From Escherichia coli (GTDB lineage Bacteria > Pseudomonadota > Gammaproteobacteria > Enterobacterales > Enterobacteriaceae), in NCBI RefSeq assembly GCF_045037415.1, contig NZ_CP173438.1: DNA of 64,000 bases; one strand, written 5' to 3'. The position numbers were made by a program. Positions 1 through 3,000 of this stretch are shown here, one piece after another (positions within the stretch are counted from its first letter, which is position 1; each line of letters opens with the position of its first letter).

Positions 1-3000
1 CTGTTGGCCTTACGAGCCGAAGTTGAGCGTAACGCTGAACTGCAACGTCTGGTGAAATGGTGGGGTGAGTTCCAGGTTTCCGCGCCGCCAGACCAAAAAG
101 GGATGCTTAACGAACTGGATGAAGAACCGTCACCGCGTCGTCGTACTCGTCGTCCACGCAAACGCGCACCGCGTCGTGAGGGTACTACATGACAGTGGCG
201 TATATTGCCATAGGCAGCAATCTGGCCTCTCCGCTGGAGCAGGTCAATGCTGCCCTGAAAGCATTAGGCGATATTCCAGAAAGCCGCATTCTTGCCGTTT
301 CTTCGTTTTACCGCACCCCACCTCTGGGGCCGCAAGATCAACCCGATTACTTAAATGCCGCCGTCGCGCTGAAAACCACTCTTGCCCCTGAAGAGCTACT
401 CAATCACACACAGCGTATCGAATTGCAGCAAGGTCGCGTCCGTAAAGCTGAACGCTGGGGACCGCGCACGCTGGATCTCGACATCATGCTGTTTGGTAAT
501 GAAGTAATAAATACCGAACGTCTGACCGTTCCGCACTACGATATGAAAAATCGTGGCTTTATGCTGTGGCCACTGTTTGAAATTGCGCCGGAGCTGGTCT
601 TTCCTGATGGAACGATATTAGAAAACTTATTAAGAAAAAATAAATTTCATGAATTAAATAAATGGTAATGTAACAGTAACGTGAATATAAATAAATTCCG
701 AAAAATAACCTCACCCTATTGAAATTAATACACCCTCTCAGTTACAATCATAATTAATATTATTTTTTCGCCCCCCCACCCCATCTCACATACAATACTT
801 TTCCCGCTGTGTATATTAACTTTTGCTTAAAAATGAATTAAGTGGATATTTAAATTTAAATGTGTACATTATTCTACTTAGTGATGAACAGATGTTAAAT
901 TCAGTAAATCTTCACATTCATCATTAACAAACTAATCTCTTTTCCTCTATCGGGAATCCCTGCCTGAAAGGGCCCAATTGTAGTTAAACTCATGGAATAT
1001 GATTCAAGGATTTTTATGTCTAAAAAATTAGGTTTTGCGCTCTCTGGTCTTATGCTGGCAATGGTTGCAGGTAGTGCTTCTGCAGATATGGACGGTGGTC
1101 AGTTAAATATCAGTGGTCTGGTTGTTGATAATACCTGTGAAACCCGCGTAGACGGCGGTAATAAAGATGGCCTGATCCTGCTGCAAACTGCAACCGTTGG
1201 AGAAATCTCTGAGGGTGTGCTGGACACTACCGTTGGTGCTAAGGCTAAACCATTCAGCATTACTGTTGACTGTAGTAAAGCTAATCCGGCACCAGGCAGC
1301 ACAGCAAAAATGACTTTTGGTTCAGTCTTCTTTGGTAACAGTAAAGGAACCCTGAATAATGACATGTCAATTAATACTCCATCTGACGGTGTTAATATTG
1401 CTCTGCACAATATTGAAGGTTCTACTATTAAGCAGGTTAAAATCAACAATCCTGGCGATATCTATTCCAAAGCACTGGATGCAACTTCCAAATCCGCAAC
1501 TTATGATTTTAAAGCGTCTTATGTTCGTGCAGATGCAAGTCTGGCAGCCACAGCAGGTTATGTAAAAACTAACACTGCATATACCGTTACTTATCAGTAA
1601 TCACTTCCATTCATATTCATAAATTGAATACATACAGGGAATAATATTGATACTCCATACTATTTCCTGTTTTTTTAACTCTACCAGGAATGGTTTATGT
1701 TTTTCAACACTAAATATACAGCAGCATTATGCTTCGCAACCTGTGTAGCTTTTAGCTCGTCAGCTATAGCAGATATCGTAATTTCCGGTACACGCGTAAT
1801 CTATAAAAGCGACCAAAAAAGTGTCAACATTCGCCTGGAAAATAAAGGCAATAACCCATTACTTGTTCAGAGTTGGCTGGATACTGGTGATGACAATGCT
1901 GAGCCTGGCAGTATTACCGTCCCCTTTACTGCGACTCCGCCCGTATCACGCATTGATGCAAAACGCGGCCAAACCATCAAACTGATGTACACCGCCAGCA
2001 GCGTCCTGCCAAAAGACAGAGAAAGTGTGTTCTGGTTTAACGTACTAGAAGTTCCTCCAAAACCAGATGCCGCAACAGTTGCAAATCAAAGCCTGCTGCA
2101 ATTGGCATTTCGCACACGTATAAAACTGTTCTATCGCCCGGAAGCATTGAAGGGGAATCCCTCAGAAGCACCATTAGCCCTGAAATGGTCCTGGTCAGGT
2201 TCCGAGGGTAAAGCAGCATTACGAGTGGCCAATCCAACCCCTTACTACGTCTCTTTTAGCAGTGGTGATTTAGAAGCCAGCGGTAAACGCTTTCCGATTG
2301 ATGTGAAAATGATTGCACCATTCAGTGATGAAGTCATGAAAGTCACTGGCCTTAATGGCAAAGCAAATTCTGCAAAAGTGCATTTTTACGCCATTAATGA
2401 TTTTGGTGGTGCCATTGAAGGTAATGCCAGTCTGTAATCAGGCAAGGATATAATTCCGCAGGAAGCATAACGTGACTATAAAACCAACTAAAAATTATCA
2501 CAATCATCTGACCCGTATCGCCACGTTTTGCGCGCTGCTGTATTGCAATGGTGCTTTCTGTGCTGAACTTGTTGAATATGACCATACCTTCCTGATGGGG
2601 CAGAATGCCTCAAATATTGATCTCAGCCGGTATAGTGAAGGTAACCCCGCTATACCGGGTGTGTACGACGTTAGTGTTTATGTCAACGATCAACCTGTTA
2701 TTAACCAAAGCATTACATTTGTCGCAATTGAAGGAAAAAAGAACGCACAAGCCTGTATCACACTTAAAAATTTATTGCAGTTCCATATTAATTCTCCCGA
2801 TATAAACAGCGAAAAAGCCGTTCTGCTTGCCCGGGATGAAGCTCTCGGCAATTGCCTCAATTTGACGGAAATTATCCCTCAGGCTTCCGTTCGTTATGAC
2901 GTTAACGATCAACGTCTGGATATAGACGTTCCTCAGGCCTGGGTAATGAAAAATTACCAAAACTATGTTGATCCATCGTTATGGGAAAATGGCATTAATG

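Follow-up and report, generated by a model that had tools for sequence, protein, structure and literature searches.

Can a run of cytosines upstream of the yad fimbrial operon switch or grade Yad expression by slipped-strand mutation in Escherichia coli ST131, or is it a mutational hotspot with little bearing on the operon? The question is raised by a poly-C tract between folK and yadN in the window analysed here, that is, the whole stretch of 64,000 nucleotides (64 kb) from contig NZ_CP173438.1; an earlier note on this DNA had suggested that the tract might mediate slipped-strand phase variation. According to recent work, serum induces Yad fimbriae, and these help ExPEC to colonise tissues in bacteraemia; the prevailing view that Yad is not phase-variable rests on regulatory alleles that lack the tract (K-12, CFT073). 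In ST131, the dominant multidrug-resistant clone of ExPEC, the yad regulatory allele is another one and has a slippage-prone C-run, which has changed at least once in a patient. No homopolymer is described for the yad region in the literature searched and, as far as this search reaches, the tract is described here for the first time.

Organization and composition of the folK–yadN region

The window opens with the 3′ end of pcnB, followed by folK, the intergenic region, yadN, yadV, and htrE, and over folK–yadN (189–1600) it matches EC958, the reference strain of ST131, at every position (100% identity). The folK coding sequence occupies 189–668 on the plus strand (ORF list; RefSeq annotation of the identical EC958 sequence), and yadN, which encodes the major Yad fimbrial subunit, occupies 1016–1600 on the same strand (ORF list), with its ATG at 1016 in the RefSeq/EC958 annotation. 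AAGGA at 1005–1009, also on the plus strand, is the likely ribosome-binding site of yadN, judged from sequence only. The 347 bp in between (669–1015, plus strand) are taken as the yad regulatory region on the basis of their composition and of the H-NS silencing described in the literature (PMC13245861, PMC3661553). This region has a G+C content of 31% (A 34%, T 35%, C 20%, G 11%), with GC fractions of 0.23–0.37 in 100-bp windows across it, which bears out the strongly AT-rich spacer of about 350 bp described in the earlier note. The last ~17 codons of folK are already AT-rich and differ among allele families in the alignment. No known RNA element was matched when both strands of 500–1200 were scanned against Rfam at E up to 1.

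The tract itself, cgcccccccacccc, was read directly in the window at 769–782, one base to the left of where the earlier note had placed it, and its pair of 7-C and 4-C runs is as described there. It follows a T6 run (763–768), which adjoins it on the upstream side, and is made up of a CG dinucleotide between the T run and the C run (769–770), a C7 homopolymer (771–777), a single A (778), and a C4 run (779–782). The C7 homopolymer is the length-variable part, being C5–C13 in relatives on sequence comparison, and the A and C4 (778–782) are unchanged in every inspected allele. The tract lies 234–245 bp upstream of the yadN ATG and forms the sole GC-rich island in a region of 23–37% G+C. Its presence is more than chance: when the 347 bp were shuffled 200,000 times with their composition preserved, 622 of the shuffles (0.3%) had a C or G run of at least 7; C or G runs of at least 6 in the 64 kb number 2 against ~24 expected under an independent-base model, and the yad tract is the only run of at least 7 within the window.

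Distribution of the tract among spacer alleles

Across the 5,426 complete E. coli genomes that made up the comparison set, the folK–yadN spacer exists in several very divergent versions, and all that they have in common is the final ~130 bp ahead of yadN plus some short blocks. For most of the region, identity between the ST131 and K-12 alleles is only ~65–70%, and the poly-C insertion is absent in K-12; similarly, the alignments showed no tract in the O104:H4, E272, PRO_A, and ST73/Nissle-type alleles. The poly-C allele family accounts for about 553 of the 5,426 genomes and comprises two forms, namely the window-type allele (419 genomes; 91-mer at 735–825), which reads T6-CG-C7-A-C4, and the likewise ST131-associated SE15-type allele (134 genomes), which reads ATTATT-C8-A-C4 and is 5 bp shorter at the T/C junction. 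Judging from these comparisons, the tract carriers are ST131 and its close phylogroup-B2 relatives.

The nearest allele without the tract is the E272-type, which is 87% identical and has CCGCTAACACCTCCCG at the tract position. This sequence suggests that the C-run originated by point changes in a C-rich patch. The T-run, CG, and C-run would then form a mononucleotide microsatellite probably born in this way, and replication slippage has probably altered its length after its origin.

Length variation between strains and within one patient

Variants were found by ranked searches with lengthened or shortened queries and by direct reading of the fetched loci. For the window-type allele, the identical 91-mer with C7 is present in 397 of 419 genomes; the tally of variants, in which 12 of the 17 genomes that are one difference away from the 91-mer are identified, includes C8 in two genomes (CAVp367 and E13), C6 in eight (U13A, U14A, DSM 111506, 875, CH4794, Esc20, CNR20180903, and OZ039398), T5/C5 in one (2019_APHA, an assembly with other homopolymer defects), G770A, which turns CG into CA, in strain 1434, and a TTTTC deletion in FCI23. 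For the SE15-type allele, C8 in an identical sequence was found in 130 of 134 genomes, and of the remaining four at least two lack one base. The tract is near-fixed within ST131, where 95–97% of the genomes have one length, and this argues against high switching rates. The surrounding junction is variable as well: the T6 run ranges from T5 to T8 and is included in a recurrent 5-bp junction deletion (TTTTC), and the CG dinucleotide (769–770) is missing or changed in the SE15-type, FCI23, and SCU-124 alleles.

Four diverged non-ST131 relatives have T7–T8 with C11, C12, C13, and C13, counts whose exact values are uncertain because some variant assemblies have other homopolymer or frameshift defects; for instance, pcnB is frameshifted in A42, A5 has become A4 at 829 in SCU-124, and an A-run in folK carries a deletion in 2019_APHA, so that some length calls may err. 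The long-tract relatives diverge from the window by 0.26–0.36% over ~20 kb, and the divergence among them is 0.37%, so that they do not form a single clone; long tracts are nonetheless found in all of them. The flanks are near-identical, with only two substitution sites (743 and 798) in ~490 bp around the tract, and the lengths seen with such flanks are C5, C6, C7, C8, C11, C12, and C13. The earlier note had left open whether this tract varies, and the comparison shows that its length is not invariant, either between strains or, as described below, within a patient. In addition, a metagenome scan with a gapped pattern returned 5 contigs only, too few for a length distribution, and 3 of the 5 have the C7 reference form. 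The lone deviant contig has C7 in an SE15-type context at 1.1× coverage.

A change of tract length was also seen in a single patient with recurrent UTI, from whom four complete ST131 genomes are available: U12A and U15A have C7, U13A and U14A have C6, and no other difference is present in the 801 bp fetched for this locus. It has been reported that these assemblies were built from PacBio reads and that their indels were polished with Illumina reads, that U13A and U14A form a small cluster of their own, and that the population differs by at most 27 core SNPs (Forde et al.). The separate cluster of U13A and U14A, together with the polished assemblies and the identical flanks, indicates that C6 is a heritable one-base slip in a host-resident lineage.

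Single-base loss is about 6–17 times commoner at the yad tract than at two control homopolymers. At the yad tract, 9 of 419 genomes have lost one base; for the first control, a C6 run in ampE, the figure is 7 of 5,407 (Fisher p = 3e-7). With both alleles taken together, the loss is seen in 11 of 553 genomes, and the second control, an A8 run in htrE, has it in 2 of ~563 genomes from the same allele set (p = 0.012). Deviation at the controls and deviation at the tract occur in different genomes. High-rate slippage needs about 8–9 G/C or more in surveys of contingency loci; the C7 of the window is below this length and the C11–C13 of the relatives are above it. At C7, as in the window and EC958, or at C8, as in the SE15-type allele, the tract mutates above the rate of ordinary sites, yet slowly enough that it has stayed almost fixed in the clone, and at C11–C13 it falls within the lengths typical of true hypermutable tracts.

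Position of the tract relative to the yadN promoter

The evidence favours a mutational hotspot rather than a working phase switch in ST131. The tract is probably a lineage-specific, slippage-prone, and quasi-stable microsatellite that lies distally in an H-NS-silenced region and affects Yad little or not at all in ST131. It has been reported that ~200 bp upstream of yadN suffice for H-NS-repressed, serum-inducible reporter activity in CFT073 (PMC13245861). The positionally equivalent segment of the window, placed at 816–1015 on the plus strand from the methods of that paper and from alignment, holds blocks that are conserved in all allele families, such as 822–850. The tract lies outside and upstream of this segment and is probably upstream of the main promoter. 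Since it is ~235 bp from the yadN start and upstream of a segment that is sufficient elsewhere in ExPEC, it is most likely no on/off switch for Yad in ST131.

Some observations nevertheless count against a simple bystander. The literature searched, the coverage of which does not extend to the work of Larsonneur et al. (2016) on K-12 Yad regulation, gives no yadN transcription start for any yad allele, so that the promoter in use in ST131 could still include the tract. The CFT073 reporter also represents a different, tract-less allele family, and its promoter positions need not transfer; CFT073 is ST73 and the ST73/Nissle-type allele is tract-less, so that no published promoter experiment took in the tract. 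The excess of variants over the control runs means that the tract is not simply inert sequence, and some of the length calls (2019_APHA, SCU-124, and A42) may be assembly errors.

A predicted promoter that overlaps the tract has to be weighed in the same way. The site with the best consensus, P1 (719–748, plus strand; TTGAAA-18-TACAAT, with the −10 at 743–748), is predicted just upstream of the tract, and the T/C SNP at 743 falls on the first base of its predicted −10. A second, weak site, P2 (767–796, plus strand), was predicted in a crude matrix scan with TTCGCC or TCGCCC (767/768), a distance of 17–18 bp, and TACAAT (791–796); its −35-like hexamer overlaps the start of the tract and matches only 3 of 6 positions, and its rank of second among the plus-strand candidates is a lead only. 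With the same crude matrix, the P2 score is 8.6 at C4 and C6, 8.1 at C7, 7.1 at C8, 5.1 at C9, 3.1 at C10, and 0.9 at C11 or longer. Both the rank of P2 and this fall from a score of ~8 at C4–C7 to 0.9 speak against an entirely passive tract.

It is unlikely, but worth weighing, that the tract is a true contingency locus, in which slipped-strand changes of the C-run alter the −35/−10 spacing or the distance to a UP-like block and thereby switch or grade Yad. Its location in a fimbrial regulatory region, the range of C5–C13 between close relatives, the C7 to C6 change within a patient, which is congruent with the published phylogeny, and the larger number of variants than at control homopolymers are all in keeping with it. 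In the matrix model, the decrease in the predicted P2 score as the tract lengthens would be the pattern expected of a spacing switch, and the AT-rich block at 751–768 would sit at about −52 to −35 of the predicted P2, which is the location of UP elements. However, the tract has a single length in nearly all ST131 genomes, the −35-like hexamers of P2 are poor matches, and the distance of 234 bp from the ATG puts the tract outside the ~200 bp that are active in CFT073. Moreover, C7 and C8 are short for high-rate slippage in mismatch-repair-proficient E. coli. EC958, which has C7, is silenced but inducible, and the authors of the EC958 and CFT073 work call Yad not phase-variable (PMC13245861). 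The earlier suggestion of slipped-strand phase variation therefore stands in part: the length does vary, but the tract is quasi-stable in ST131 at C7 or C8, the predicted promoter that overlaps it is weak, and the segment active in CFT073 does not reach it. If the tract length does affect yad output, it would provide heritable, lineage-specific adhesin variation and a rare case of repeat-mediated regulation in E. coli.

Comparison with known homopolymer systems

The C-stretches of Bordetella pertussis and Bordetella bronchiseptica (fim2, fim3, fimX, and fimN) resemble the yad tract in that a poly-C run of isolate-variable length likewise lies upstream of a fimbrial major-subunit gene. The nearest match among them is fimX, in which most strains carry C7 and a minority C8, a pattern that matches the C7/C8 pattern at yad; this has been termed microevolution, not in-culture switching, and the two alleles are ~4-fold apart in transcript (PMC1891110), which lends some support to a contingency locus at yad. 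However, the Bordetella tracts overlap mapped promoters and lie 21–80 nt from the start codon, much closer than the yad tract; those of fim2 and fim3 are C10–C18, compared with C7 in the window; and the yad tract has neither sequence homology to them nor a BvgA-type activator context.

[quoted passage not shown] The weak predicted P2 would imply the same geometry at yad. Isogenic variants and binding assays with RNA polymerase have proven the sabA effect, and the sabA tract is highly variable within hosts; in Bordetella, too, tract length has been proven to alter transcription. A further difference is that E. coli has efficient mismatch repair. The yad tract is a candidate member of the class of promoter homopolymers (SSR): of the defining features it shows the length polymorphism with conserved flanks, and its C7 in the window is below the usual threshold of length.

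H-NS silencing of the yad regulatory region

It has been reported that yad is silent in EC958, the C7 strain identical to the window, where deletion of hns derepresses all yad genes, and that yad is similarly derepressed in an hns mutant of CFT073 (PMC13245861); the K-12 version of the yadN/folK intergenic region is a listed H-NS-associated ‘promoter island’ (PMC3661553). These reports agree with the earlier note, which had regarded the region as typical of silenced fimbrial promoters. The window region is as AT-rich as H-NS promoter islands and cryptic chaperone-usher operons, and has the AT-rich intergenic character of the promoter-island class (31% G+C over 347 bp). The published island call concerns the K-12 allele; a simple consensus promoter scan of the window's region showed no excess of promoter sites, with 3 found against 2.4 ± 1.6 in dinucleotide shuffles.

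The GC-rich 14-bp block might interrupt or phase H-NS filaments or bridges, its length setting how strongly the region is silenced or how easily host cues counter-silence it, an explanation that we consider quite unlikely. The H-NS repression of yad in EC958 and the position of the tract as the only GC-rich island in the region are consistent with it, as is the serum induction of yad, which is 4-fold in EC958 and 15-fold in the tract-less CFT073, two strains that differ in much else. However, the tract-less alleles of K-12 and CFT073 are silenced equally well, and the search for the high-affinity H-NS motif TCGATAAATT was uninformative, with one 2-mismatch match at 688–697 and a window count of 85 against 66 ± 9 expected. 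For the quasi-stable microsatellite that we favour, a change of length would at most shift promoter output or H-NS silencing slightly and heritably, via the spacing or helical phase between the AT-rich blocks on its two sides.

Long-tract relatives and reliability of the length calls

A more specific alternative is that the T-run/C-run is a genuine contingency element for Yad in one B2 sublineage of E. coli, a species where simple-sequence loci of this sort are regarded as very rare, hypermutable at C11–C13 and switching or grading yad there, and that ST131 shortened it to C7 (or, with the 5-bp deletion, to C8) and so locked the state. The relatives that would represent the unlocked form do have tracts above the length at which high-rate slippage begins, but we regard this history as distinctly improbable. 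If it were true, the contraction would have fixed the regulatory state of an adhesin that has recently been tied to bloodstream infection.

That most of the length variation stems from sequencing or assembly errors at a homopolymer, with the tract effectively invariant and functionless, is highly improbable: the further defects in the 2019_APHA, SCU-124, and A42 assemblies, the predominance of singletons among the +1/−1 variants, and the low coverage of the sole length-deviant metagenome contig would fit it, but the C6 of U13A and U14A occurs in two independent Illumina-polished assemblies and is congruent with their phylogenetic cluster, C7, C8, and C11–C13 each occur in many genomes or in independent genomes, and the control runs deviate in other genomes and at several-fold lower rates. 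Even if it has no effect on yad, the tract is still a fast-evolving marker of ST131 and a reason for caution with long-read homopolymer calls.

Other switch types

In the fimS (type 1) and pap-family switches, chaperone-usher fimbriae are controlled from upstream, as at yad, but their mechanisms are inapplicable here. A pap-type Dam/Lrp methylation switch, which has two GATC sites in Lrp-binding regions upstream of its promoter, was ruled out by the count of 0 GATC in 600–1100. Similarly, a fimS-type invertible promoter, in which inverted repeats flank a promoter segment next to a site-specific recombinase gene, was ruled out, as no inverted repeats were convincing, the repeats are short and AT-rich, the neighbouring genes are folK and yadN, and there is no recombinase gene. 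The IS1 of strain AZ 186 was considered as a promoter-activating event and rejected, the insertion being within yadN and not in the promoter. The sole perfect inverted repeat is a 9-bp pair at 845–853 and 1103–1111, which straddles the yadN start.

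Allele Families of the folK–yadN Spacer

The spacer between folK and yadN (669–980) falls into no fewer than four or five allele families with a mutual identity of only ~65–87%, among them the ST131-type, E272/PRO_A-type, ST73/Nissle-type and K-12/B1-type, while the folK and yadN 5′ ends on either side show at least 90% identity across these families. The divergence of the spacer looks like the result of ancient allelic replacement or of very rapid drift in a silenced region. The allele-specific AT-rich sequence starts within folK itself, at its 3′ end (~610–668). The final ~17 codons of the ST131-type folK (…TILENLLRKNKFHELNKW) are unlike those of the K-12-type (…EMLRQILHTRAFDKLNKW), a difference supported by the alignment of the allele families (A1), so the divergent block has its edge inside a housekeeping gene. 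A second chaperone-usher fimbrial cluster of four genes is present in the long-tract (C11–C13) B2 strains ~10 kb upstream of folK, between fhuA and mrcB and upstream of the window (4840–9744 in locus L026 and 4838–9742 in locus L027).

Variation at and around the Poly-C Tract

The point where the T run meets the C run (763–770) is a recurrent deletion site, as seen at 290–310 of L028 and ~493–520 of L001, two of the comparison loci. For instance, the blood isolate FCI23, whose allele is otherwise of the window type, lacks TTTTC and reads ATTATT-G-C7; the identical 5-bp loss is found in the SE15-type allele, where an additional G-to-C change gives C8. Upstream of the tract, position 743 is a T/C SNP that changes the opening base of TACAAT (743–748), the predicted −10-like hexamer with the highest score. 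Among the poly-C alleles, T at this position is confined to the window type, and C (CACAAT) is found in the SE15-type and all long-tract strains.

Over the whole window, G/C homopolymers are strongly depleted, with two runs of at least 6 observed against ~24 expected, the sole one beside the yad tract being a C6 within ampE (42708–42713). A T9 run is located at 40701–40709. Likely homopolymer errors occur close to the yad locus in several assemblies labelled "complete" (L016, L009 and L027): an A-run deletion shortens folK in 2019_APHA, A5 becomes A4 at window position 829 in SCU-124, and pcnB is annotated as frameshifted in A42. Such errors call for caution with tract lengths called from long-read assemblies.

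The yadN Start Region

The RefSeq start of yadN is at 1016, with AAGGA as the likely ribosome-binding site at 1005–1009, and the protein read from this start opens with a typical signal peptide; an in-frame ATG at 992 would lengthen yadN by 8 codons. In AZ 186, an IS1 lies shortly after the yadN start codon (L024; equivalent to window 1023–1032), accompanied by a AAAAATTAGG-like target duplication, and the major subunit gene is thus disrupted in this strain. A perfect 9-bp inverted repeat, GATATTTAA / TTAAATATC, is found on either side of the start region (845–853 and 1103–1111) and probably reflects chance matching within AT-rich DNA.
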